In this document: in pieces, positions 1,492 to 64,000 of the stretch
How the letters are laid out: each line of letters starts with the position of its first letter
Numbering within the stretch: the stretch's first letter is position 1
Assembly: GCF_035084215.1 (NCBI RefSeq)
Contig: NW_027138407.1
Coordinates: forward strand, 1,612,001-1,676,000
Direction: 5' to 3'
Length of the DNA: 64,000 bases
Origin: Heptranchias perlo
Taxonomy: Eukaryota
The notes under the pieces: generated by a model
The model's database searches: none
Seen by the model: only the letters and a program-made list of their open reading frames with translations
What the model was told of the DNA's origin: nothing
Made by a program: the position numbers and the translations under genes

Positions 1492-2162
1492 TGGGGGTCA
1501 CCATTGACCAGAAACTTAACTGGACCAGCCACATAAATATCGTGGCTACAAGAGCAGGTCAGAGGCTGGGTATTCTGCAGCGAGTGACTCACCTCTTGAA
1601 TCCCCAAAGCCTTTCCACCATCTACAAGGCACAAGTCAGGAGTGTGATGGAATACTCTTCACTTGCCTGGATGAGTGCAGCTCCAACAACACTCAAGAAG
1701 CTCAACACCATCCAGGACAAAGCAGCCCGCTTGATTGGCACCCCATCCACCACCTTAAACATTCACTCCCTTCACCATCGGCGCACCGTGGCTGCAGTGT
1801 GTACCATCCATAGGATGCACTGCAGCAACTCGCCAAGGCTTCTTCGACAGCACCTCTCAAACCTGCAACCTCTACCACCTAGAAGGACAAGGGCAGCAGG
1901 AACATGGGAACAACACCACCTGCACGTTCCCCTCCAAGTCACACACCATCCCGACTTGGAAATATATCGGCCGTTCCTTCATCGTCGCTGGGTCAAAATC
2001 CTGGAACTCCCTTCCGAACAGCACTGTGGGAGAACCTTCACCACATGGACTGCAGCGGTTCAAGAAGGCGGCTCACCACCACCTTCTCAAGGGCAATGAG
2101 GGATGAGCAATAAATGCCGGCCTCGCCAGCGACACCCACATCCCATGAACTAATAAAAAAAA
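1492..2162 (+). mobile_element. 5'-truncated LINE (family A, CR1/L2 group): RT C-terminus, 3' hairpin tail and A-tail
   Basis: ORF 1473-2099 GVTIDQKLNWTSHIN...YKAQVRSVMEYS matches the 3' part of the 8042 element; ends in aataaaaaa. Confidence 0.93.
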
Positions 2163-6939: not shown

Positions 6940-7158
6940 GTGAGTGGATCTTTGAGAAGTTGAAGAGGCAGGGCCGGTTTGGATGGAGGTAATGTCACTG
7001 TTAGTGATAGAGAACGGGGATGGGTGAGTAGAGAGTGGGGAGAGAGGAATAGAGAGTGGGGAGAGGTGCGTAGAGAGTGGGGATGGGTGCAGAGAGTGGG
7101 GTTAGATGAGTAGAGATTGAGGATGGTGAGCTGCTTTGGAACTGAGGGCCGTTGAGGG

Positions 7159-8036
7159 GGGACTGAGAGACATCAGTCAGTGTCCAGATATCTTCCTGAG
7201 AGACAGGGACTGAGAGACAACAGTCAGTGTACAGGTATCTCCCTGAGGGAGAGGGACTGAGATGCACCAGTCAGTGTACAGATATCACCCTGAGAGAGAG
7301 GGACTGAGATACACCAGTCAGTGTACAGGTATCTCCCTGAGGGAGAGGGACTGAGAGACACCAGTCAGTGTACAGATATCTCCCTGAGAGAGAGGGACTG
7401 AGGGACACCAGTCATTGTACAGATATCTCACTGAGAGAGAGGGACTGAGAGACACCAGTCAGGGTACAGATATCACCCTGAGGGAGAGGGACTGAGAGAC
7501 ACCAGTCAGTGTACAGATATCTCCCTGAGGGAGAGGGACTGAGAGACACCAGTCAGTGTACAGATATCAACCTGAGAGAGAGGGACTGAGAGACACCAGT
7601 CAGTGTACAGATATCAACCTGAGAGAGAGGGACTGAGAGACACCAGTCAGTGTACAGATATCACCCTGAGAGAGAGGGACTGAGAGACACCAGTCAGTGT
7701 ACAGATATCTCCCTGAGAGAGAGAGACTGAGAGACACCAGTCAGTGTACAGATATCACCCTGAGGGAGAGGGAAATGAGAAACACCAGTCATTGTACAGA
7801 TATCACCCTGAGAGAGAGGGACTGAGAGTCACCAGTCAGTGTACAGATATCACCCTGAGGGAGAGGGACTGAGAGTCACCAGTCAGTGTACAGATATCAC
7901 CCTGAGAGAGAGGGACTGAGAGACACCAGTCAGTGTACAGATATCACCCTGAGAGAGAGGGACTGAGAGTCACCAGTCAGTGTACAGATATCACCCTGAG
8001 AGAGACGGACTGTGAGATACCAGTCATTGAACAGAT
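7159..8036 (+). repeat. 47-bp minisatellite (~18-19 units)
   Basis: Tandem gggactgagagacaccagtcagtgtacagatatcaccctgagagaga. Confidence 0.95.
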
Positions 8037-8041
8037 AGTTC

Positions 8042-11000
8042 TTTAGGGAAGGAAACCTGCCGTCCTTACCCGGTCTGGCCTTTTTGTGACTCCAGACCCA
8101 CAGCAATGTGGTTGATTCTTATTTGCCCTCTGAAATGGCCTAGCAAGCCAATCAGTTGTAAAATCTCGCTACGAAAAGTCATAATAAGAATAAAACCGGG
8201 CGGACCACCCGGCATCGGACCACTAGGCACAAGACATGACAACGGCAAACCACGCCCAGTCGACCCTGCAAGGTCCTCCTTACTAACATCTGGGGACTTG
8301 TGCCAAAATTGGGAGAGCTGTCCCACAGACTAGTCAAGCAACAGCCTGACATAGCCATACTCACAGAATCATATCTTTCAGCCAACATCCCAGACTCTTT
8401 CATTACCATCCCTGGGTATGTCCTGTCCCACTGGCAGGACAGACCCACCAGAGGTGGCGGTACAGTGATATACAGTCAGGAGGGAGTGGCCCTGGGAGTC
8501 CTCAACATTGGCTCTGGACCCCATGAAATCTCATGGCATCAGGTAAAACATGGGCAAGGAAACCTCCTGCTGATTACCACCGACCGTCCTCCCTCAGCTG
8601 ATGAATCAGTCCTCCTCCATGTTGAGCACCACTTGGAGGAAGAACTGAGGGTAGCAAGGGCACAAAATGTACTCTGGGTGGGGGACTTCAATGTCCATCA
8701 CCAAGAGTGGCTCGGTAGCACCACTACTGACCGAGCTGGCCGAGTCCTGAAGGACATAGCTGCTAGACTGGGCCTGCGGCAGGTGGTGAGCGAACCAACA
8801 CGAGGGAAAAACTTACTTGATCTCGTCCTCACCAATCTACCTGTCGCAAATGCATCTGTCCATGACAGTATTGGTAGGAGTGACCACCACACAGTCCTCA
8901 TGGAGATGAAGTCCGTCTTCGCACTGAGGACACCATCCAACGTGTTGTGTGGCACTACCACCATGCTAAATGGGATAGATTCAGAACAGATCTAGCAGCT
9001 CAAAATTGGGCATCCATGAGGCGCTGTGTGCCATCAGCAGCAGCAGAATTGTATTCCACCACAATCTGTAACCTCATGGCCCGGCATATTCCTCACTCTA
9101 CCATGACCAACAAGCCAGGAGATCAACCCTGGTTCAATGAGGAGTGTAGAAGAGCATGCCAGGAGCAGCACCAGGTGTACTTAAAAATGAGGTACCAACC
9201 TGGTGAAGCTACAACTCAGGACTACATGCATGCTAAACAGCAGAAGCAACATGCTATAGACAGAGCTAAGCGATTCCACAACCAACGGATCAGATCAAAG
9301 CTCTGCAGCCATGCCACATCCAGTCGTGAATGGTGGTGGACAATTAAACAACTAACAGGAGGAGGAGGCTCTGCAAACATCCCCATCCTCAATGATGGTG
9401 GAGTCCAGCACGTGAGTGCAAAAGACAAGGCTGAAGCGTTTGCAACGATCTTCAGCCAGAAATGCCGAGTGGATGATCCATCTCGGCCTCCTCCCGATAT
9501 CCCCACCGTCACGGAAGCCAGTCTTCGGCCAATTCGATTCCCTCTACGTGATATCAACAAACGGCTGAGTGCACTGGATACTGCAAAGGCGATGGGCCCC
9601 GACAACATCCCAGCTGTAGTGCTGAAGACTTGTGCTCCAGAACTAGCTGCGCCTCTAGCCAAGCTGTTCCAGTACAGCTACAACACTGGCATCTACCCGA
9701 CAATGTGGAAAATTGCCCAGGTATGTCCTGTCCACAAAAAGCAGGACAAATCCAATCCGGCCAATTACCGCCCCATCAGTCTACTCTCAATCATGAGCAA
9801 AGTGATGGAAGGTGTCATCAACAGTGCTATCAAGCGGCACTTACTCACCAATAACCTGCTCACCGATGCTCAGTTTGGGTTCCGCCAGGACCACTCGGCT
9901 CCAGATCTCATTACAGCCTTGGTCCAAACATGGACAAAAGAGCTGAATTCCAGAGGTGAGGTGAGAGTGACTGCCCTTGACATCAAGGCAGCATTTGACC
10001 GAGTGTGGCACCAAGGAGCCCTTGTAAAATTGAAGTCAACGGGAATCAGGGGGAAAACTCTCCAGTGGCTGGAGTCATACCTAGCACAAAGGAAGATGGT
10101 AGTGGTTGTTGGAGGCCAATCATCTCAGCCCCAGGACATTGCTGCAGGAGTTCCTCAAGGCAGTGTCCTAGGCCCAACCATCTTCAGCTGCTTCATCAAT
10201 GACCTTCCCTCCAACATCAGGTCAGAAATGGCGATGTTCGCTGATGATTGCACAGTGTTCAGTTCCATTCGCAACCCCTCAAATAATGAAGCAGTCCGAG
10301 CCCACATGCAGCAAGACCTGGACAACATCCAGGCTTGGGCTCATAAGTGGCAATTAACATTCGCGCCAGATAAGTGCCAGGCAATGACCATCTCCAACAA
10401 GAGAGAGTCTAACCACCTCCCCTTGACATTCAACGGCATTACCATCGCCGAATCCCTCAGCATCAACATCCTGGGGGTTACCATTGACCAGAAACTTAAC
10501 TGGACCAGCCATATAAATACTGTGGCGACAAGGGCAGGTCGGAGGCTGGGTATTCTGTGGCGAGTGACTCACCTCCTGACTCCCCAAAGCCTTTCCACCA
10601 TCTACAAGGCACAAGTCAGGAGTGTGATGGAATACTCTCCACTTGCTTGGATGAGTGCAGCTCCAACAACACTCAAGAAGCTCGATACCATCCAAGATAA
10701 AGCAGCCCGCTTGATTGGCACCCAATCCACCACCCTAAACATTCACTCCCTTCACCACCGGCGCACTGTGACTGCAGTGTGTACCATCCACAGGATGCAC
10801 TGCAGCAACTCGCCAAGGCTTCTTCAACAGCACCTCCCAAACCCGCGACCTCTACCACCTAGAAGGACAAGAGCATCAGGCACATGGGAACAACACCACC
10901 TGCACGTTCCCCTCCAAGTCACAAACCATCCCGACTTGGAAATATATCGGCCGTTCCTTCATTGTCGCTGGGTCAAAATCCTGGAACTCCCTTCCTAACA

Positions 11001-11141
11001 GCACTGTGGGAAAACCTTCACCACACGGACTGCAGCGGCTCAAGAAGGCGGCTCACCACCACCTTCTCAAGGGGCGACTAGGGATGGGCAATAAATGCTG
11101 GCCTCGCCAGCGACGCCCACATCCCGTGAACGAATAAAGAA
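8042..11141 (+). mobile_element. Near full-length LINE family A (APE endonuclease + RT), frameshifted, lacking the tRNA-like head
   Basis: EN motifs NIWGL, LTES, GDFN, SDH (ORF 8300-8995); RT motifs ALDIKAAFDRVWH, GVPQGSVLGP, FADD (ORF 8947-10998); 1-nt deletion near 8912; possible 5-bp TSD agttc at 8037/11142. Confidence 0.95.
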
Positions 11142-11475
11142 AGTTCACTTTCTAATATTTTGGATCACATTGTTTTGAATATTTAATAACTGTATTGATA
11201 TCTGTCCATTTACAGGCTTCAGAGTCCTACGTGATCTCTGCAATTCTGCATCCTGGCACCGCAGCAATCTCTTGGGCCCATTGGTTTCCACAGGTTTCAG
11301 AGAAGAAGCTCACCCTGTCTGAACCCATGAGATAGGATTAACGTGTTGGAGAGCCAACTGAGACCTTCAAAAACCAATAATCTGACAGGGCGGTCTCAAC
11401 TGTTGTTGAACAATATCGGATCTCATTCCCCGACATTGTTCATCCGTTGCTCTGTATTGTTTGGCATAACACCAA

Positions 11476-29884: not shown

Positions 29885-30555
29885 TGGGGGTCACCATTGA
29901 CCAGAAACTTAACTGGACCAGCCACATAAATATCGTGGCTACAAGAGCAGGTCAGAGGCTGGGTATTCTGCAGCGAGTGACTCACCTCTTGAATCCCCAA
30001 AGCCTTTCCACCATCTACAAGGCACAAGTCAGGAGTGTGATGGAATACTCTCCACTTGCCTGGATGAGTGCAGCTCCAACAACACTCAAGAAGCTCGACA
30101 CCATCCAGGACAAAGCAGCCCGCTTGATTGGCACCCCATCCACCACCTTAAACATTCACTCCCTTCACCATCGGCGCACCGTGGCTGCAGTGTGTACCAT
30201 CCACAGGATGCACTGCAGCAACTCGCCAAGGCTTCTTCGACAGCACCTCTCAAACCTGCAACCTCTACCACCTAGAAGGACAAGGGCAGCAGGAACATGG
30301 GAACAACACCACCTGCACGTTCCCCTCCAAGTCACACACCATCCCGACTTGGAAATATATCGGCCGTTCCTTCATCGTCGCTGGGTCAAAATCCTGGAAC
30401 TCCCTACCGAACAGCACTGTGGGAGAACCTTCACCACATGGACTGCAGCGGTTCAAGAAGGCGGCTCACCACCACCTTCTCAAGGGCAATGAGGGATGAG
30501 CAATAAATGCTGGCCTCGCCAGCGACACCCACATCCCATGAACTAATAAAAAAAA
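29885..30555 (+). mobile_element. 5'-truncated LINE family A (duplicate of 1492-2162)
   Basis: ORF 29866-30492, RT C-terminus. Confidence 0.93.
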
Positions 30556-35138: not shown

Positions 35139-36110
35139 GGGACTGAGAGACATCAGTCAGTGTCCAGATATCTTCCTGAGAGACAGGGACTGAGAGACAA
35201 CAGTCAGTGTACAGGTATCTCCCTGAGGGAGAGGGACTGAGATGCACCAGTCAGTGTACAGATATCACCCTGAGAGAGAGGGACTGAGAGACACCAGTCA
35301 GTGTACAGGTATCTCCCTGAGGGAGAGGGACTGAGAGACACCAGTCAGTGTACAGATATCTCCCTGAGAGAGAGGGACTGAGGGACACCAGTCATTGTAC
35401 AGATATCTCACTGAGAGAGAGGGACTGAGAGACACCAGTCAGGGTACAGATATCACCCTGAGGGAGAGGGACTGAGAGACACCAGTCAGTGTACAGATAT
35501 CTCCCTGAGGGAGAGGGACTGAGAGACACCAGTCAGTGTACAGATATCAACCTGAGAGAGAGGGACTGAGAGACACCAGTCAGTGTACAGATATCAACCT
35601 GAGAGAGAGGGACTGAGAGACACCAGTCAGTGTACAGATATCACCCTGAGAGAGAGGGACTGAGAGACACCAGTCAATGTACAGATATCACCCTGAGAGA
35701 GAGGGACTGAGAGACACCAGTCAGTGTACAGATATCACCCTGAGGGAGAGGGAAATGAGAAACACCAGTCATTGTACAGATATCACCCTGAGAGAGAGGG
35801 ACTGAGAGTCACCAGTCATTGTACAGATATCACCCTGAGAGAGAGGGACTGAGAGTCACCAGTCAGTGTACAGATATCACCCTGAGGGAGAGGGACTGAG
35901 AGTCACCAGTCAGTGTACAGATATCTCCCTGAGAGAGAGGGACTGAGAGTCACCAGTCAGTGTACAGATATCACCCTGAGAGAGAGGGACTGAGAGACAC
36001 CAGTCAGTGTACAGATATCACCCTGAGAGAGAGGGACTGAGAGTCACCAGTCAGTGTACAGATATCACCCTGAGAGAGACGGACTGTGAGATACCAGTCA
36101 TTGAACAGAT
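35139..36110 (+). repeat. 47-bp minisatellite (~20-21 units)
   Basis: Same unit as 7159-8036. Confidence 0.95.
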
Positions 36111-36115
36111 AGTTC

Positions 36116-39100
36116 TTTAGGGAAGGAAACCTGCCGTCCTTACCCGGTCTGGCCTTTTTGTGACTCCAGACCCACAGCAATGTGGTTGATTCTTATTTGC
36201 CCTCTGAAATGGCCTAGCAAGCCAATCAGTTGTAAAATCTCGCTACGAAAAGTCATAATAAGAATAAAACCGGGCGGACCACCCGGCATCGGACCACTAG
36301 GCACAAGACATGACAACGGCAAACCACGCCCAGTCGACCCTGCAAGGTCCTCCTTACTAACATCTGGGGACTTGTGCCAAAATTGGGAGAGCTGTCCCAC
36401 AGACTAGTCAAGCAACAGCCTGACATAGCCATACTCACAGAATCATATCTTTCAGCCAACATCCCAGACTCTTTCATCACCATCCCTGGGTATGTCCTGT
36501 CCCACTGGCAGGACAGACCCACCAGAGGTGGCGGTACAGTGATATACAGTCAGGAGGGAGTAGTCCTGGGAGTCCTCAACATTGACGCTGGACCCCATGA
36601 AATCTCATGGCATCAGGTAAAACATGGGCAAGGAAACCTCCTGCTGATTACCACCTACCGTCCTCCCTCAGCTGATGAATCAGTCCTCCTCAATGTTGAG
36701 CACCACTTGGAGGAAGAACTGAGGGTAGCAAGGGCACAAAATGTACTCTGGGTGGGGGACTTCAATGTCCATCACCAAGAGTGGCTCAGTAGCACCACTA
36801 CTGACCGAGCTGGCCGAGTCCTGAAGGACATAGCTGCTAGACTGGGCCTGCGGCAGGTGGTGAGCGAACCAACACGAGGGAAAAACCTACTTGACCTCGT
36901 CATCACCAATCTACCTGTCGCAAATGCATCTGTCCATGACAGTATTGGTAGGAGTGACCACCACACAGTCCTCATGGAGATGAAGTCCGTCTTCGCACTG
37001 AGGACACCATCCAACGTGTTGTGTGGCACTACCACCATGCTAAATGGGATAGATTCAGAACAGATCTAGCAGCTCAAAATTGGGCATCCATGAGGCGCTG
37101 TGTGCCATCAGCAGCAGCAGAATTGTATTCCACCACAATCTGTAACCTCATGGCCCGGCATATTCCTCACTCTACCATGACCAACAAGCTAGGAGATCAA
37201 CCCTGGTTCAATGAGGAGTGTAGAAGAGCATGCCAGGAGCAGCACCAGGTGTACCTAAAAATGAGGTACCAACCTGGTGAAGCTACAACTCAGGACTACA
37301 TGCATGCTAAACAGCAGAAGCAACATGCTATAGACAGAGCTAAGCGATTCCACAACCAACGGATCAGATCAAAGCTCTGCAGCCATGCCACATCCAGTCG
37401 TGAATGGTGGTGGACAATTAAACAACTAACAGGAGGAGGAGGCTCTGCAAACATCCCCATCCTCAATGATGGTGGAGTCCAGCACGTGAGTGCAAAAGAC
37501 AAGGCTGAAGCGTTTGCAACGATCTTCAGCCAGAAATGCCGAGTGGATGATCCATCTCGGCCTCCTCCCGATATCCCCACCGTCACGGAAGCCAGTCTTC
37601 GGCCAATTCGATTCCCTCTACGTGATATCAACAAACGGCTGAGTGCACTGGATACTGCAAAGGCTATGGGCCCCGACAACATCCCAGCTGTAGTGCTGAA
37701 GACTTGTGCTCCAGAACTAGCTGCGCCTCTAGCCAAGCTGTTCCAGTACAGCTACAACACTGGCATCTACCCGACAATGTGGAAAATTGCCCAGGTATGT
37801 CCTGTCCACAAAAAGCAGGACAAATCCAATCCGGCCAATTACCGCCCCATCAGTCTACTCTCAATCATGAGCAAAGTGATGGAAGGTGTCATCAACAGTG
37901 CTATCAAGCGGCACTTACTCACCAATAACCTGCTCACCGATGCTCAGTTTGGGTTCCGCGAGGACCACTCGGCTCCAGATCTCATTACAGCCTTGGTCCA
38001 AACATGGACAAAAGAGCTGAATTCCAGAGGTGAGGTGAGAGTGACTGCCCTTGACATCAAGGCAGCATTTGACCGAGTGTGGCACCAAGGAGCCCTTGTA
38101 AAATTGAAGTCAACGGGAATCAGGGGGAAAACTCTCCAGTGGCTGGAGTCATACCTAGCACAAAGGAAGATGGTAGTGGTTGTTGGAGGCCAATCATCTC
38201 AGCCCCAGGACATTGCTGCAGGAGTTCCTCAAGGCAGTGTCCTAGGCCCAACCATCTTCAGCTGCTTCATCAATGACCTTCCCTCCAACATCAGGTCAGA
38301 AATGGCGATGTTCGCTGATGATTGCACAGTGTTCAGTTCCATTCGCAACCCCTCAAATAATGAAGCAGTCCGAGCCCACATGCAGCAAGACCTGGACAAC
38401 ATCCAGGCTTGGGCTCATAAGTGGCAATTAACATTCGCGCCAGATAAGTGCCAGGCAATGACCATCTCCAACAAGAGAGAGTCTAACCACCTCCCCTTGA
38501 CATTCAACGGCATTACCATCGCCGAATCCCTCAGCATCAACATCCTGGGGGTTACCATTGACCAGAAACTTAACTGGACCAGCCATATAAATACTGTGGC
38601 GACAAGGGCAGGTCGGAGGCTGGGTATTCTGTGGCGAGTGACTCACCTCCTGACTCCCCAAAGCCTTTCCACCATCTACAAGGCACAAGTCAGGAGTGTG
38701 ATGGAATACTCTCCACTTGCTTGGATGAGTGCAGCTCCAACAACACTCAAGAAGCTCGATACCATCCAAGATAAAGCAGCCCGCTTGATTGGCACCCAAT
38801 CCACCACCCTAAACATTCACTCCCTTCACCACCGGCGCACTGTGACTGCAGTGTGTACCATCCACAGGATGCACTGCAGCAACTCGCCAAGGCTTCTTCG
38901 ACAGCACCTCCCAAACCCGCGACCTCTACCACCTAGAAGGACAAGAGCAGCAGGCACATGGGAACAACACCACCTGCACGTTCCCCTCCAAGTCACAAAC
39001 CATCCCGACTTGGAAATATATCGGCCGTTCCTTCATTGTCGCTGGGTCAAAATCCTGGAACTCCCTTCCTAACAGCACTGTGGGAAAACCTTCACCACAC

Positions 39101-39215
39101 GGACTGCAGCGGCTCAAGAAGGCGGCTCACCACCACCTTCTCAAGGGGCGACTAGGGATGGGCAATAAATGCTGGCCTCGCCAGCGACGCCCACATCCCG
39201 TGAACGAATAAAGAA
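36116..39215 (+). mobile_element. LINE family A, copy 3 (EN + RT, frameshifted)
   Basis: ORFs 36374-37069 (EN) and 37021-39072 (RT). Confidence 0.95.
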
Positions 39216-39549
39216 AGTTCACTTTCTAATATTTTGGATCACATTGTTTTGAATATTTAATAACTGTATTGATATCTGTCCATTTACAGGCTTCAGAGTC
39301 CTACGTGATCTCTGCAATTCTGCATCCTGGCACCGCAGCAATCTCTTGGGCCCATTGGTTTCCACAGGTTTCAGAGAAGAAGCTCACCCTGTCTGAACCC
39401 ATGAGATAGGATTAACGTGTTGGAGAGCCAACTGAGACCTTCAAAAACCAATAATCTGACAGGGCGGTCTCAACTGTTGTTGAACAATATCGGATCTCAT
39501 TCCCCGACATTGTTCATCCGTTGCTCTGTATTGTTTGGCATAACACCAA

Positions 39550-51808: not shown

Positions 51809-52477
51809 CCGGGTTAAATTTCTTGCACTAGGGCCCCCAGGAATCAGTACTGGGGCCTTAGCTTTTCATTAGATTTACAGTGGACTAAATTTGCTGACGA
51901 CACTAAGTTAGGAGGCACAGTAAATAGTGCAGATGGGAGCAGAAAGTTACAAAGGGACATTGAGAGATTAAGTGGGGCAGATGGAGTTCAGTGTGGGAAA
52001 GTGTGAGGTCGTCCACTTTGGACCTAAGAAAGATCGATCAGGGTATATCCTAAATGGCGAGAAGCTCAGAACTGTGGAGGAGCAGAGAGATTCAGGGGTC
52101 CAAGTACAGAAATCAGTAAAAGCCAGTGGACAGAGACAAAAAATAATTCAAAAAGCGAATGGAATGTTGGCCTTTATCTCAGAGGGCTGGAATACAAAGG
52201 GTGGAAATTATGGACAGAGCTCTGGTTAGACCCCATCTGGAGCACGGTGTTCAGTTCTGGGCACCGCACCTCAGGAAGGAGATATTGGCCTTGGAGGGGG
52301 TGCAGGACAGATTCACCAGAATAACACCAGGGCTAAAAGGGTTAAATTATGAGGACAGGTTGCACAGACTCGGCTTGTAATCCCTTGACTATAGAAGATT
52401 AATGAATGATCCAATTGAGATGTTTAAGATGATTAAAGGAGCTGATTGGGTAGATGGAGAGAAACTATTTCCCCTGT

Positions 52478-55400
52478 TTTTTTTTATTCGTTCATGGGAT
52501 GTGGGCGTCGCTGGCGAGGCCGGCATTTATTGCCCATCCCTAATTGCCCCTTGAGAAGGTGGTGGTGAGCCGCCTTCTTGAACCGCTGCAGTCCGTGTGG
52601 TGAAGGTTCTCCCACAGTGCTGTTAGGAAGGGAGTTCCAGGATTTTGACCCAGTGACGATGAAGGAATGGCTGATATATTTCCAAGTCGGGATGGTGTGT
52701 GACTTGGAGGGTAACGTGCAGGTGGTGTTGTTCCCATGTGCCTGCTGCCCTCGTCCTTCTAGGTGGTAGAGGTCGTGGGTTTGGGAGGTGCCGTCAAAGA
52801 AGCCTTGACGAGTTGCTGCAGTGCATCCTGTGGATGGTACACACTGCAGCCACAGTGCGCCAGTGGTGAAGGGAGTGAATGTTTAGGGTGGTGGATGGGG
52901 TGCCAATCAAGCGGGCTGCTTTGTCCTGGATGGTGTCGAGCTTCTTGAGTGTTGTTGGAGCTGCACTCATCCTGGCAAGTGGAGTGTATTCCATTACATT
53001 CCTGACTTGTGCCTTGTAGATGGTGGAAAGGCTTTGGGGAGTCAGGAGGTGAGTCACTCGCTGCAGAATACCCAGCCTCTGACCTGCTCTTGTAGCCACA
53101 GTATTTATATGGCTGGTCCAGTTAAGGTTCTGGTCAATGGTAACCCCCAGGATATTGATGGTGGGGGATTCGACGATGGTAATGCCGTTGAATGTCAAGG
53201 GGAGGTGGTTAGACTCTCTCCTGTTCGAGATGGTCATTGCCTGGCACTTGTCTGGCGCGAATGTTACTTGCCACTTATCAGTCCAAGCCTGGATGTTGTC
53301 CAGGTCTTGCTGCATGCGGGCTCGGACTGCTTCATTACCTGAGGGGTTGTGAATGGAACTGAACACTGTGCAATCGTCAGTGAACGTCCTCATTTCTGAC
53401 CTTATGATAGAGGGAAGGTCATTGATGAAGCAGCTGAAAATGTTTGGGCCTAGGACACTGCCCTGAGGAACTCCTGCAGCAATGTCCTGGGGCTGAGATG
53501 ATTGGCCTCCAACAACCACTACCATCTTCCTTTGTGCTAGGTATGACTCCAGCCACTGGAGAGTTTTCCCCCTGATTCCCATTGACTTCAATTTTACTCG
53601 GGCTCCTTGGTGCCACACTCGGTCAAATGCTGCCTTGATGTCAAGGGCAGTCACTCTCACCTCACCTCTGGAATTCAGCTCTTTTGTCCATGTTTGGACC
53701 AGGGCTGTAATGAGGTCTGGGGCCGAGTGGTCCTGGCGGAACCCAAACTGAACACCGGTGAGCAGGTTATTGGTGAGTAAGTGCTGCTTGATAGCACTGT
53801 CGACGACACCTTCCATCACTTTGCTGATGATTGAGAGTAGACTGATGGGGCGGTAATTGGCCGGATTGGATTTGTCCTGCTTTTTGTGGACAGGATATAC
53901 CTGGGCAATTTTCCACATTGTCGGGTAGATGCCAGTGTTGTAGCTGTACTGGAACAGTTTGGCGAGAGGCACAGCTAGTTCTGGAGCACAAGTCTTCAGC
54001 ACTACAGCTGGGATGTTGTTAGGGCCCATAGCCTTTGCTGTATCCAGTGCACTCAGCCGTTTCTTGATATCACGTGGAGTGAATCGAATTGGCTGAAGAC
54101 TGGCTTCTGTGATGGTGGGGATATCGGGAGGAGGCCGAGATGGATCATCCACTCGGCATTTCTGGCTGAAGATGGTTGCAAACACTTCAGCCTTGTCTTT
54201 TGCACTCACGTGCTGGACTCCGCCATCATTGAGGATGGGGATGTTTACAGAGCCTCCTCCTCCCATTAGTTGTTTAACTGTCCACCACCATTCACGACTG
54301 GATGTGGCAGAAGTGCAGAGCTTTGTTTGTGGAATCGCTTAGCTCTGTCTATAGCATGTTGCTTCCGCTGTTTAGCATGCATGTAGTCCTGAGTTGTAGC
54401 TTCACCAGGTTGGCACCTCATTTTTAGGTACGCCTGGTGCTGCTCCTGGCATGCTCTTCTACATTCCTTATTGAACCAGGGTTGATCCCCCTGGCTTGTT
54501 GGTAATGGTTGAGTGAGGAATATGCCGGGCCATGAGGTTACAGATTGTGCTGGAATACAATTCTGCTGCTGCTGATGGCCCACAGCACCTCCTGATGGCC
54601 CACAGCACCTCCTGGAGGCCCAGTTTTGAGCTGCTAGATCTGTTCTGAATCTATCCCATTTAGCACGGTGGTAGTGCCACACAACACGTTGGATGGTGTC
54701 CTCAGTGTCGAAGACAGGATTTCATCTCCATGAGGACTGTGCGGTGGTCACTCCTACCAATACTGTCATGGACAGATGCATTTGCGACAGGTAGATTGGT
54801 GAGGACGAGGTCAAGTCAGTTTTTCCCTCACCACCTGCCGCAGGCCCAGTCTGGCAGCTATGTCCTTCAGGACTCGGCCAGTAGTGGTGCTACTGAGCCA
54901 CTCTTGGTGATGGACATTGAAGTCCCCCACCCAGAGTACATTTTGTGCCCTTGCTACCCTCAGTGCTTCCTCCAAGTGGTGCTCAACATGGAGGAGGACT
55001 GATTCATCAGCTGAGGGAGGGCGGTAGGTGGGAATCAGCAGGAGGTTTCCTTGCCCATGTTTGAGCTGATGCCTTGAGATCTGGAGTCAATGTGTCGGAC
55101 TCCCAGGGCCACTCCCTCCTGACTGTATATCACTGTACCGCCACCTCTGGTGGGTCTGTCCCGCCAGTGGGACAGGACGGTAATGGAAGAGTCTGGGACG
55201 TTGGCTGAAAGGTACGATTCTGTGAGTGTGGCTGTGTCAGGCTGTTGCTTGACTAGTCTGTGGGACAGCTCTCCCAATTTTGGCACAGGTCCCCAGATGT
55301 TCGCGAGGAGGACTTTGCAGGGTCGACTGGGCTTGGCTTGCCTTTGTTGTGTCCGGTGCCTAGTGGTCTGTCTGGTTTTATTCTTATCATGACTTTTTTT

Positions 55401-55706
55401 AAGTGAGATTTTACAACTGGAGTGGCTTGCTGGACCATTTCAGAATCAACCACATTGCTGTGGGTCTGGAGTCACATCTCGGACTCCTTCCACGAAAGGG
55501 ACATTAATGAACCAGATGGGTTTTTACGACAATCCGGTCGTTTCATGGCTACCATTACTGATACTCGTATTTTAATTCCAGATTTTATTTAATTAATTAA
55601 ATTTAAATTCCCTAGCTGCCATGGTGGAATTAGAACTCATAATTCTGGATTATTGGTTCAGGCCTCTGGATTACTAGTTCAGTAACATAACCACTATGCT
55701 ACCGTA
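52478..55706 (-). mobile_element. Full-length LINE family A with tRNA-like Pol III head and one degraded EN-RT ORF
   Basis: Poly(A) at 52478; RT ORF 52794-54266; EN remnants 54730-55300; A-box 55691-55701 and B-box 55626-55638; TSD ccctgt at 52472-52477 and 55707-55712. Confidence 0.92.
55626..55701 (-). promoter_or_regulatory. Internal Pol III type-2 promoter (A box TAGCATAGTGG, B-box-like GAGTTCTAATTCC)
   Basis: A box fits TRGCNNAGYGG a few nt from the element's 5' end; B box resembles GGTTCRANNCC, 52 nt downstream. Confidence 0.7.
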
Positions 55707-56074
55707 CCCTGTGGGGGGAATCCAGAACAAGGGGGCAGAACCTTAAACTTAGAGCCAGGCCGTTCAGGGGTGAAGTCAGGAATCACTTCTTCACACAAAG
55801 GGGAGTGGAAATCTGGAACTCTCTCCCCACAAAAAGCTGTTGAGGCTGGGGGTCAATTGAAAATTTCAGTACTGAGATTGATCGATATTTGTCAGGCGAG
55901 GGTATTGAGGGTTACGGAACCGAGGCGGGTAGATGGAGTTAAGATACAGATCAGCCATGATCTAATTGAATGACGGAACAGACTCGAGGGGCTGAATGGC
56001 CTACTCTTGTTCCTATGTTTTTCTGTTTCTATCTATCTATCGATCTGTCTAATTATCTATTTATACCTGCATTT

Positions 56075-58715: not shown

Positions 58716-59118
58716 TTCGATTAACTTGATGCATCGAACTATCGATCGATCTCTATGTGTCTGTAACCCTGCAGTGCTGCCTCAGTAACACCAGGTGGCA
58801 ATGGTGTACCTAGGTCTGATGCAGCAAGTTGACAAACTGAAGGAAAAAGTTAAGCCTGGTAATCAGGGTGCCCCACATTTAACCCTTTCATTGTTACTCC
58901 CAACTCAAGTCCCATCGTCCCCCGAAGGCGCTGACTCGTGCAGGGGTGTGGTATCGTCAGGACTCCCTGTCACCCTCTTGCCTCTGCTATCCCAAGTGGC
59001 CCCGTTCTTTATGTGTGAACCCAGACAGTGTGTCAGAGGGACATTCGAGCATGAGGGGCATCACAGACGAGCCTCGATCCTGTCCTCCCATGACCTCGAC
59101 GCCTTTGCCAGCAGGAGA

Positions 59119-62050
59119 CCACACCTGTCAATCACTCTCCCACACCTGTCAATCACTCTCCCACACCTGTCAATCACTCTCCCACACCTGTCAATCACTC
59201 CCCCACACCTGTCAATCCCTCCCACACCTGTCAATCACACACCCCCACATCTGTCAATCACTCCCCCACACCTGTCAATCACTCTCCCACACCTGTCAAT
59301 CCCTCCCCCCCACCTGTCAATCACTCCCCCACACCTGTCAATCACTCCCCACACCTGTCAATCACTCCCCCACACCTGTCAATCCCTCCCACACCTGTCA
59401 ATCCCTCCCCCACACCTGTCAATCACTCCCCCACACCTGTCAATCACTCCCCACACCTGTCAATCACTTCCCACACCTGTCAATCCCTCCCCCACACCTG
59501 TCAATCACGACCCCACACCTGTCAATCCCTCCCACACCTGTCAATCACTCGCCACACCTGTCAATCACTCCCCCACACCTGTCAATCACGCCCCCACGCC
59601 TGTCAATCACTCCCCACACCTGTCAATCACTCCCCACACCTGTCAATCACTCCCCACACCTGTCAATCACTACCCCACACCTGTCAATCACTCTCCCACA
59701 CCTGTCAATCACTTCCCACACCTGTCAATCACTCCCCCACAACTGTCAATCACTCCTCCACACCTGTCAATCACTCTCCCACACCTGTCAATCACTTCCC
59801 ACAACTGTCAATCACTCCCCCACACCTGTCAATCACTCCCCCACCTGCCAATCACTCCCCCACACCTGTCAATCACTCCCTCACCTGTCTATCACTCCCT
59901 CACCTGTCAATCACTTCCCACACCTGTCAATCACTTCCCACACCTGTCAATCACTCCCACACACCTGTCAATCACTCCGCCACACATGTCAATCACTCCC
60001 TCACCTGTCAATCACTCCCTCACCTGTCAATCACTCCCCCACCTGTCAATCACTTCCCACACCTGTCAATCACTCCCTCACCTGTCAATCACTCCCTCAC
60101 CTGTCAATCACTCCCCCACACCTGTCAATCACTCCCCCACCTGTCAATCACTCCCTCACCTGTCAATCACTTCCCACACCTGTCAATCACTCCCTCACCT
60201 GTTAATCACTCCCACACACCTGTCAATCACTCCCCCACACCTGTCAATCACTCCCACACACCTGTCAATCACTCCCTCACCTGTCAATCACTCCCCCACC
60301 TGTCAATCACTCCCCCACCTGTCAATCACTCCCTCACCTGTCAATCACTCCCACACCTGTCAATCACTCCCCCACACCTGTCAATCATTCCCCACCTGTC
60401 AATCACTCCCACACCTGTCAATCACTCCCTCACCTGTCAATCACTCCCACACACCTGTCAATCACTTCCCACACCTGTCAATCACTCCCCCACCTGTCAA
60501 TCACTTCCCACACCTGGCAATCACTCCCTCACCTGTCAATCAATCCCCCACACCTGTCAATCACTTCCCACACCTGTCAATCACTTCCCACACATGTCAA
60601 TCACTTCCCACACCTGGCAATCATTCCCTCACCTGTCAATCACTTCCCACACCTGTCAATCACTCCCCCACACCTGTCAATCACTCCCTCACCTGTCAAT
60701 CACTCCCCCACACCTGTCAATCACTTCCCACACCTGTCAATCACTTCCCACACCTGTCAATCACTCCCTCACCTGTCAATCACTCCCTCAACTGTCAATC
60801 ACTTCCCACACCTGTCAATCACTCCCCCACCTGTCAATCACTCCCTCACCTGTCAATCACTTCCCACACCTGTCAATCACTCCCACACCTGTCAATCACT
60901 CCCCCACCTGTCAATCACTCCCACACCTGTCAATCACTTCCCACACCTGTCAATCACTCCCTCACCTGTCAATCACTTCCCACACCTGTCAATCACTGCC
61001 CCACACCTGTCAATCACTCCCCCACCTGTCAATCACTCCCTCACCTGTCAATCACTTCCCACACCTGTCAATCACTTCCCACACCTGTCAATCACTCCCT
61101 CACCTGTCAATCACTCCATCACCTGTCAATCACTCCCACACCTGTCAATCACTCCCACACACCTGTCAATCACTTCCCACACCTGTCAATCACTCCCCCA
61201 CCTGTCAATCACTTCCCACACCTGGCAATCACTCCCTCACCTGTCAATCACTCCCCCACACCTGTCAATCACTTCCCACACCTGTCAATCACTTCCCACA
61301 CCTGTCAAATCACTTCCCACACCTGGCAATCACTCCCTCACCTGTCAATCACTTCCCACACCTGTCAATCACTCCCCCACACCTGTCAATCACTCCCTCA
61401 CCTGTCTATCACTCCCTCACCTGTCAATCACTCCCCACACCTGTCAATCACTTCCCACACCTGTCAATCACTTCCCACACCTGTCAATCACTCCCTCACC
61501 TGTCAATCCCTCCCTCAACTGTCAATCACTTCCACACCTGTCAATCACTCCCCCACCTGTCAATCACTCCCTCACCTGTCAATCACTTCCACACCTGTCA
61601 ATCACTCCCACACCTGTCAATCACTCCCCCACCTGTCAATCACTCCCACACCTGTCAATCACTTCCCACACCTGTCAATCACTCCCTCACCTGTCAATCA
61701 CTTCCCACACCTGTCAATCACTTCCCACACCTGTCAATCACTGCCCCACACCTGTCAATCACTCCCCCACCTGTCAATCACTCCCCCACCTGTCAATCAC
61801 TTCCCACACCTGTCAATCACTCCCTCACCTGTCAATCACTCCCCCACCTGTCAATCACTCCCTCACCTGTCAATCACTTCCCACACCTGTCAATCACTCC
61901 CTCACCTGTCAATCACTCCCACACCTGTCAATCACTTCCCTCACCTGTCAATCACTCCCTCACCTGTCAATCACTTCCCACACCTGTCAATCACTCCCCC
62001 ACCTGTCAATCACTCCCTCACCTGTCAATCACTCCCTCACCTGTCAATCA
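59119..62050. repeat. ~20-22 bp minisatellite (cacacctgtcaatcactccc), roughly 140 units
   Basis: Near-invariant core cacctgtcaatcac with a variable C-rich spacer. Confidence 0.97.
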
Positions 62051-62227
62051 CAGCTGGTTGCCATGACTTGCAATTCTCGCTCAATCCCCGCCCCCTCCAG
62101 CGGTCACCACGCCCCCAGGAGCACGTGCTCCTAGTCCCCGTTTCCCATTGGCCCGGGCCCGGCCTATCAGTGGGCGCGCTCGTTCGGGCCGCGTCATCAA
62201 GGCGGAAGCGGCAGGTGAGAAAAGGGG
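62051..62227 (+). promoter_or_regulatory. CpG-rich promoter and probable non-coding first exon ending in a splice donor
   Basis: RFX-like GTTGCCATGAC 62057, GC box CCCCGCCCCC 62086, CCACGCCCC 62107, palindromic E-box aggagCACGTGctcct 62117-62132, ATTGG 62147, ETS CGGAAG 62203, donor CAG|GTGAGA 62214/62215. Confidence 0.7.
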
Positions 62228-62357
62228 NNNNNNNNNNNNNNNNNNNNNNNNNNNNNNNNNNNNNNNNNNNNNNNNNNNNNNNNNNNNNNNNNNNNNNNNN
62301 NNNNNNNNNNNNNNNNNNNNNNNNNNNNNNNNNNNNNNNNNNNNNNNNNNNNNNNNN

Positions 62358-64000
62358 GAGATAGGGGGATAGAGAGAGAGAGAGAGAGATAGGGGGATAG
62401 AGAGAGAGAGAGAGAGAGATAGGGGGATAGAGAGNNNNNNNNNNNNNNNNNNNNNNNNNNNNNNNNNNNNNNNNNNNNNNNNNNNNNNNNNNNNNNNNNN
62501 NNNNNNNNNNNNNNNNNNNNNNNNNNNNNNNNNNNNNNNNNNNNNNNNNNNNNNNNNNNNNNNNNNNNNNNNNNNNNNNNNNNNNNNNNNNNNNNNNNNN
62601 NNNNNNNNNNNNNNNNNNNNNNNNNNNNNNNNNNNNNNNNNNNNNNNNNNNNNNNNNNNNNNNNNNNNNNNGAGAGATAGGGGGATAGAGAGAGAGAGAG
62701 AGATAGGGGGATAGAGAGAGAGAGAGAGATAGGGGGATAGAGAGAGAGAGAGAGATAGGGGGATAGAGAGAGAGAGAGAGATAGGGGGATAGAGAGAGAG
62801 AGAGAGATAGGGGGATAGAGAGAGAGAGAGAGATAGGGGGATAGAGAGAGAGAGAGAGATAGGGGGATAGAGAGAGAGAGAGAGATAGGGGGATAGAGAG
62901 AGAGAGAGAGATAGGGGGATAGAGAGAGAGAGAGATAGGGGGATAGAGAGAGAGAGAGAGATAGGGGGATAGAGAGAGAGAGAGAGATAGGGGGATAGAG
63001 AGAGAGAGAGAGAGATAGGGGGATAGAGAGAGAGAGAGAGAGATAGGGGGATAGAGAGAGAGGAGAGAGATAGGGGGATAGAGAGAGAGAGAGAGATAGG
63101 GGGATAGAGAGAGAGAGAGAGATAGGGGGGATAGAGAGAGAGAGAGAGATAGGGGGATAGAGAGAGAGAGAGAGATAGGGGGATAGAGAGAGAGAGAGAG
63201 ATAGGGGGATAGAGAGAGAGAGAGAGATAGGGGGATAGAGAGAGAGAGAGAGATAGGGGGATAGAGAGAGAGAGAGAGATAGGGGGATAGAGAGAGAGAG
63301 AGAGATAGGGGGATAGAGAGAGAGAGAGAGATAGGGGGATAGAGAGAGAGAGAGAGATAGGGGGATAGAGAGAGAGAGAGAGATAGGGGGAATAGAGAGA
63401 GAGAGAGAGATAGGGGGATAGAGAGAGAGAGAGAGATAGGGGGATAGAGAGAGAGAGAGAGATAGGGGGATAGAGAGAGAGAGAGAGATAGGGGGATAGA
63501 GAGAGAGAGAGAGATAGGGGGATAGAGAGAGAGAGAGAGATAGGGGGATAGAGAGAGAGAGAGAGATAGGGGGATAGAGAGAGAGAGAGAGATAGGGGGA
63601 TAGAGAGAGAGAGAGAGATAGGGGGATAGAGAGAGAGAGAGAGATAGGGGGATAGAGAGAGAGAGAGAGATAGGGGGATAGAGAGAGAGAGAGAGATAGG
63701 GGGATAGAGAGAGAGAGAGAGATAGGGGGATAGAGAGAGAGAGAGAGATAGGGGGATAGAGAGAGAGAGAGAGATAGGGGGATAGAGAGAGAGAGAGAGA
63801 TAGGGGGATAGAGAGAGAGAGAGAGATAGGGGGATAGAGAGAGAGAGAGAGATAGGGGGATAGAGAGAGAGAGAGAGATAGGGGGATAGAGAGAGAGAGA
63901 GAGATAGGGGGGATAGAGAGAGAGAGAGAGATAGGGGGATAGAGAGAGAGAGAGAGATAGGGGGATAGAGAGAGAGAGAGAGATAGGGGGATAGAGAGAG
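62358..64000 (+). repeat. Purine-rich 22-26 bp repeat (GA)n-TAGGGGGATA with N gaps
   Basis: gagagagagagatagggggata in tandem to the end of the window. Confidence 0.95.

Follow-up and report, generated by a model that had tools for sequence, protein, structure and literature searches.

The window analysed here is a 64,000-nt stretch of the Heptranchias perlo genome (contig NW_027138407.1, positions 1,612,001 to 1,676,000, forward strand), and its relevant features are collected in Table 1. The copy at 8.0 kb is a dead, 5'-shortened member of the Zenon LINEs of elasmobranchs, which belong to the CR1 group, and represents an abundant shark element of about 3.3 kb. In the sections of Stuart et al. 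(2026) cited here, Zenon is defined by the absence of ORF1 and by a poly-A tail, and the elasmobranch elements CarCar, HypSab, RhiTyp, ScyCan and SquAca_Zenon are described (PMC13343379). Our family-level assignment is based on an AP endonuclease domain and one of reverse transcriptase (RT) within a single EN-RT ORF, on the absence of ORF1 (about 355 nt precede the lone ORF in full-length copies) and on the poly-A tail present in the family. In addition, a 23-nt leader motif recurs in seven supplementary consensus rows of that paper, and the published elasmobranch consensuses agree with our family across the first 400 nt, which are those displayed and were compared by eye. As far as the published material extends, these elements resemble the window family in leader, length of about 3.3 kb, lack of ORF1, EN-RT, A tail and head.

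Table 1. Features of the window discussed in the text. T4, T4+ and A4+ denote runs of four T, of four or more T and of four or more A, and likewise for other lengths.
Feature	Position	Strand	Remarks
Zenon LINE copy, 5'-truncated	8038..11142	+	Starts at about 225-229 of the 3332-nt family majority; head absent; EN/RT frameshift
TTTTT variant (majority TATAT)	8081..8085	+	In 3 of 56 covering copies (window copy, L037, L056), all headless
T4-free sense strand	8086..11141	+	0 T4, 7 T3, 17 A4+
Predicted hairpin and complementary GCUA	8130..8171	+	Hairpin 8130-8155 with 7-nt loop; candidate AUG-free start signal
Arg-rich leader and AP-endonuclease domain	8168..8995	+	TGA at 8237-8239 inside
RT-containing frame	8884..10998	+	PF00078 at about 9739-10485
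3' stem-loop and short A-rich tail	11078..11142	+	Common to derived SINEs; z -3.6
Tandem duplicate of the 8.0-kb insertion with flanks	21960..25261	+	99.0%
Tandem duplicate of the 8.0-kb insertion with flanks	35975..39274	+	99.5%
Older full-length Zenon copy	52479..55709	-	91% to first copy; keeps tRNA-like head; one T4 at 53437-53440
tRNA-like head, A-box and B-box-like motifs	55620..55709	-	5' end at 55709
3' fragment of Zenon family	45381..46578	+	96%
3' fragment of Zenon family	1492..2161	+	93%; duplicates at 15833-16502 and 29885-30554

The plus-strand copies at 8.0, 22.1 and 36.1 kb are 99% identical including their flanks, and therefore count as one duplicated insertion and not as three observations. 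The TGA within the leader of the first copy is a CpG-decay variant, the position being CGA in 34 of 58 copies. An intronless rhodopsin-family GPCR ORF of 331 aa (PF00001; 11470-12465, 25531-26526 and 39544-40539, all three frames open) travels with the LINE in each copy of a tandem duplication of about 14 kb; it holds 7 T4+ runs against 5.6 expected, in agreement with the several TTTT ascribed to it by the first-pass annotation. A satellite with a unit of about 47 nt adjoins the truncated 5' end of the 8.0-kb copy (about 7150-8030, plus duplicates), and the same satellite lies beside L056 on another contig. Canonical CR1 fragments occupy the minus strand within 45029-51827, and their intact relatives elsewhere, used below as control LINEs, have ORF2 frames of 980 aa and 13 T4.

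A search of the host genome (3.25 Gb) returned 37 further near-identical copies, a set picked with a near-5' query and thus biased toward long copies. A majority sequence of 3332 nt was derived from 33 copies (30 of the 37 fetched and three from the window), leaving out six rearranged copies and one duplicate. The full element measures 3.33 kb and has one frame of 973 aa. Among the 37 copies, 19 begin at nucleotides 1-4 of a tRNA-like head, with flanks unrelated to one another, two begin inside the A box and 16 are truncated. The tRNA-like head is therefore the true 5' end of the Zenon family, and the tRNA-head model proposed in the first-pass annotation is upheld. No convincing target-site duplication was found in the 15 copies checked. 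The same head opens seven Zenon consensuses published for five elasmobranch species, which keep the A and B boxes with a different spacer, and no T4 was seen in the 400 nt displayed of each (all by eye; PMC13343379). Between the five species, identity is at least 84%. For the Zenons of hagfish and coelacanth, the 400 nt on display contain T4+ and no visible head, and their orientation may differ.

As a tRNA, the head receives weak scores: ARAGORN called no functional tRNA at it in five loci, and the Rfam tRNA model gave 18.7 bits against a cut-off of 29 (E 0.36). Since the head is not a functional tRNA, use as a promoter fits better than use as a structure. It could still act as an RNase P/Z-type processing signal by which the element is cut out of host transcripts, a role that ribozymes play in other LINEs; the scarcity of T-runs would then have some other cause. 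Exact 5' ends at the first base of the head and the lack of an AUG agree with such a role; however, the head fails tRNA scoring, its acceptor and T-stems are mispaired by eye, its minimum-free-energy fold is no cloverleaf, and a processing signal predicts no T-specific deficit, so that we regard this explanation as very improbable. Of the traits of tRNA-related (SINE2, Pol III type-2) elements, the 5' head with A and B boxes is found in the Zenon LINE, and the lack of internal T4+ on the sense strand is found in its majority sequence, with exceptions among single copies. A non-coding, non-autonomous form below about 700 nt is not that of the 3.3-kb LINE and is found only in its deletion derivative.

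The first-pass annotation had reported that the sense strand from 8086 to 11141 holds no TTTT, about seven TTT and more than a dozen AAAA. Counting gave exactly this (T2 81, T3 7, T4+ 0; A4 14, A5 3; T = 20.0%), and the T4-free gap extends to 11157, the next T4 starting at 11158. The TTTTT described near the truncated 5' end lies where it was placed, and the T4 reported in the minus-strand copy at about 53427-53430 is indeed single and a C>T change from the family majority, but it is situated about 10 nt away. The expected number of 4-5 T4 runs stands under a base-composition null (3.9 by base shuffling of the window segment, P(0)=0.027) and falls to about 2 once codons or dinucleotides are kept (1.9 by dinucleotide shuffling, P=0.12); T3+ runs number 7 against 12.5 expected (P=0.024). 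The family majority, in which internal T4+ runs had been proposed as a check, has 0 T4 and 7 T3, and 25 of 33 aligned copies have no T4. Simple-repeat arrays at 58789-62364 and 62.7-64 kb also run for several kb free of T4 on either strand, so such gaps are not unique to the LINE within the window.

When the synonymous codons that the element itself uses are permuted within the ORF, 2.1 T4 are expected against none observed (P(0)=0.085) and 12.6 T3+ against 5 (P=0.001); a pooled third-base null gives 2.0 T4 and 16.1 T3+. The codon-shuffling check suggested earlier thus had a split outcome: the absence of T4 alone is non-significant (P 0.085-0.11), whereas TTT is depleted. Missing TTTT is by itself weak evidence, and the signal is in TTT, in phenylalanine and in a gradient with run length. 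Where a synonymous T would yield a run of one, two, three, or four or more, T is used at 144/464 (31%), 46/225 (20%), 6/56 (11%) and 0/8 sites, dropping with run length (runs of at least three against runs of two, P=0.043). As to Phe/Leu codon pairs, another of the proposed checks, Phe makes up 2.1% of residues, half the median of 4.2% in 135 protein relatives, its residual after GC correction is lower in just 1.5% of relatives, and the dipeptides FF, FL, FY and FC are all absent. The T-run deficit is a family trait that is T-specific and strand-specific, A4+ runs being normal or high. General homopolymer avoidance was rejected as its cause, as A-runs are normal or enriched, and so was avoidance of splice or poly(A) signals, as splice donors, pyrimidine tracts and AATAAA are undepleted. 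The non-canonical terminators T3VT2 and T2VT3 number 0 against 0.8 expected, an expectation that gives the comparison no power.

From the tRNA-like head together with the T-run-poor coding strand, we infer a protein-coding RNA that is likely the product of RNA polymerase III (Pol III). The main competing explanation is an ordinary LINE transcribed by Pol II whose SINE-like 5' end was acquired by capture, either to serve as promoter or as a mere passenger. T-run scarcity would then be a by-product of C-rich, T-poor and Phe-poor coding in which codon junctions of the types T|T and T|A are disfavoured. When junction dinucleotides are held fixed, the deficit vanishes (T3+ 6 against 7.8, P=0.26; T4 0 against 0.9, P=0.39), which counts against selection on T-runs, although this null may itself absorb the T-run effect. 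Depletion of TA (93 against 112) and low TTA point the same way, as do the single T4 in the low-T relative L268 and the T4 and T5 variants common to several copies. Internal Pol II promoters, moreover, also yield precise 5' ends, as is established for L1, which is a point against the Pol III reading. In the literature, Pol II is taken to transcribe autonomous non-LTR elements (PMC10886601; also the cited sections of PMC5786205), and the poor processivity attributed to Pol III lies partly behind the rule that LINEs are Pol II and SINEs Pol III elements (PMC10886601). Against the by-product explanation, control LINEs at an equal T content (about 20%) hold 2-10 T4 and use more T in long runs, A-runs are undepleted, the boxes of the head are kept across five species, and a capped RNA leaves the absence of a usable AUG unexplained. 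We consider the Pol II explanation rather unlikely, yet it is the strongest of the alternatives.

Comparison with other LINEs of the same genome, also proposed in the first-pass annotation, revealed no T-run deficit in three families: CR1 has 13 T4 against 10.7 expected, Tx1-a 6-10 against 7-8, and Tx1-b 2-3 against about 4.5. In CR1 and the two Tx1-like families the synonymous use of T does not fall along run length, nor does that of A in any of the four families, Zenon included. For a wider comparison, 160 related loci were fetched, of which 137 with an RT frame of at least 400 aa were used and 23 were dropped. None of the 76 relatives of 800 aa or more has a zero-T4 ORF, and the lowest observed/expected ratio for T3 among the 137 is 0.74, against about 0.4 in the Zenon element. 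No A/B-box pattern or similarity to the head was found in the 137 loci, many of which are 5'-truncated; ARAGORN predicted no tRNA in any of the 60 loci scanned out of the 160, Rfam gave nothing relevant on eight, and no relatives were found among viral contigs. Four of the 137 (L329, L341, L284 and L322) are T4-poor at P<0.005 with no detected head. They could be Pol III-type LINEs or reflect another cause of T4 avoidance.

These four are ORFs of invertebrate type (T4 against expected: L341 1 and 8.6, L329 0 and 4.9, L322 4 and 11.8, L284 6 and 13.9), and for three of them the match is confined to the protein's 3' part. A close protein relative from Branchiostoma lanceolatum (P0026, 40% identity) has only 1.5% Phe. 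Prokaryotic reference MAGs also contain 397 stretches that encode CR1-group LINE proteins (L268-L347); the most likely source is DNA of a eukaryotic host that was binned with bacterial and archaeal genomes. In H. perlo, a DNA search with an old copy as query returned mainly young copies. Eleven fragments of the older family (7273 nt) contain 8 T4 and 38 T3+, against 7.3 and 47.7 simulated under neutral decay from a T4-free ancestor; these counts are compatible with such an ancestor and do not discriminate.

Single copies that do carry T4 or T5 bear directly on the Pol III reading. The T5 variant is located in the 5' UTR, and its three carriers have different variant backgrounds. On three contigs, L036, L037 and L174 have in common a synonymous change that creates a T4, together with other rare variants, so the T4 was passed on either through transposition of a source that carried it or through gene conversion; in L036 it occurs together with a complete head. 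For human Pol III, the cited part of PMC5725217 gives a termination efficiency of about 75% at T4 and one of 95% at T5, with T3 being read through. The leak of about 25% at T4 makes the three-copy cluster tolerable under the Pol III reading, the T5 is not accounted for, and the read-through of T3 means that the T3 deficit needs the added assumption of cumulative weak termination. A dual route, in which mostly Pol III transcripts are joined by transposing Pol II read-through RNAs from host promoters that give rise to T4 and T5 copies, would fit the T5 in headless copies of differing backgrounds and the T4 cluster. However, leakage or gene conversion accounts for the cluster with no second route, and L036 bears its T4 with the head complete; we judge a dual route improbable. 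A variant test covered 97 aligned stretches and 43 sites at which a single change would create a T4. The rate of C>T per site-copy was 0.0045 at these sites and 0.0114 elsewhere, but A>T and G>T showed no deficit, in a comparison that is underpowered and confounded by context.

The leader of the Zenon element appears to be translated from a start that is not AUG. The first in-frame Met of the intact copy L033 is residue 250, beyond the start of the endonuclease. From the GCT at 8168 to the endonuclease, the frame is kept in 43 of 45 copies despite lengths of 79-100 nt, and shared leader indels (-15, -3 and +3 nt) come in multiples of three, which UTR indels do not. A conserved frame that lacks AUG indicates that the leader is translated, with initiation inside the AUG-free stretch. 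An AUG start at majority position 424 was rejected, since this ATG, a CpG-decay allele, lies outside the frame, as was one within the hairpin, where an in-frame ATG is followed by TAG two codons later. The predicted hairpin carries a loop UAGC complementary to the GCUA at 8168-8171, the GCU of which is in the ORF frame, and an in-frame TAA is present at 8159-8161. All 45 of the 45 copies compared have a 9-nt linker between hairpin and GCUA. The published Zenon consensuses retain both the loop and GCTA, with GCT in frame in the first consensus of four of five species (by eye, in the displayed sequence). The predicted folding energy of the hairpin is not significant (z about -0.7). In dicistrovirus intergenic IRESs, the anticodon-like loop of pseudoknot I is likewise predicted to pair with an in-frame codon ahead of an AUG-less ORF, as set out in the cited part of PMC3517527; by comparison, Zenon shows a single small predicted hairpin/pseudoknot, and the ribosome-binding domains PKII and PKIII were not identified.

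Pol III is generally regarded as an enzyme of short, non-coding repeats alone. The reading we lean toward, by a modest margin of belief and from sequence evidence, is that Pol III transcribes Zenon from its head, that T-runs have been purged by selection, and that translation begins without AUG near the hairpin. TFIIIC and Pol III would start at the first base of the head, and source elements with T4+, or cumulatively with T3, would lose full-length RNA. Selection would thereby favour lineages in which T-runs and Phe codons are few and synonymous sites beside T carry C, and transcription would run on until the flank supplies its first T4+. The resulting RNA would be uncapped and translated from near the small hairpin/pseudoknot, and the protein would bind the 3' stem-loop, the RNA being inserted by target-primed reverse transcription; internal deletions retaining head and tail would then yield SINEs. 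The selection for Pol III read-through advanced in the first-pass annotation is accordingly retained in part. In its favour, the deficit is a T- and strand-specific family trait absent from three control LINEs and from long related ORFs; against it, the absence of T4 alone falls short of significance, the deficit is gone under the junction null, and three copies share a T4.

The Zenon LINE of H. perlo is accompanied by SINEs. A leader-to-tail junction pattern had 536 matches genome-wide and 0 in the control. The commonest junction belongs to a young SINE of about 410 nt, which is made up of the first ~355 nt and the last ~55 nt of the LINE, fused at a CTA microhomology; judged by its sequence, the young SINE is an exact internal deletion of the Zenon LINE. 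Many further head-tail junctions occur in the genome, as does an older LINE family that shares the leader (L129, L132, L136 and L139); one search pattern for an older leader gave zero matches. The body of the derived SINE may correspond to the Deu domain. The linker from hairpin to GCTA contains an A-run that is invariably 4 long in LINE copies and varies between 4 and 11 in the derived SINE, a difference to be expected were this geometry required by the LINE alone.

The Deu-SINEs SacSINE1 and LmeSINE1 of cartilaginous fish and coelacanth are similar to the SINE found here in their layout of tRNA head, body and LINE-type tail, in Pol III boxes and in size, and in the cited sections they are treated as chimeras that share only the tail with a partner LINE, L2-2_CM or CR1-4_DR-like (PMC5499810, PMC4824008, PMC3747384). 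In contrast to that account, head, body and tail are here all contained in an autonomous Zenon LINE. Repeated internal deletions at microhomologies also characterise the Persaeus SIDEs derived from insect Zenon (PMC6740152) and the bipartite derivatives of RTE and Vingi (PMC5786205), as described in the cited parts. Persaeus, however, is described there without tRNA homology or a Pol III promoter, whereas the Zenon deletion product in this study is a bona fide tRNA-headed SINE (PMC6740152). The origin of conserved SINE bodies is given as unknown in the cited section of PMC5786205. Taken as one compound proposal, Zenon would be an autonomous coding retrotransposon transcribed over 3.3 kb by Pol III, purged of T-runs even at a cost in Phe, translated free of cap and AUG by way of a tRNA-mimic pseudoknot, and the direct parent of shark tRNA SINEs whose conserved body is the translation leader of the LINE; in this full form we hold it tentatively, as somewhat short of an even prospect.

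The Zenon family is already known; its architecture and the reading given to it were not found in the literature searched. The main text of PMC13343379 mentions neither tRNA, nor polymerase III, nor promoter, and contains no discussion of the head, the T-run deficit, the AUG-free start or the derivation of SINEs. In the open-access literature, with Repbase reports outside its scope, no paper was found that gives this architecture or a Pol III reading of it. If the Pol III reading is true, a 3.3-kb coding element on a tRNA-type promoter breaks the association of LINEs with Pol II, a natural uncapped Pol III mRNA carries its own translation signal, and at least one conserved SINE body gains a testable origin. 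If Pol II is responsible instead, Zenon is still a LINE that has a complete SINE head and gives rise to SINEs through deletion.

A further observation concerns the A tails of L083, L084, L095, L101, L134 and others, which often consist of a T-run followed by an A-run. This is a palindromic change that creates T4+ after insertion, and in older SINEs the same change is seen just behind the head.
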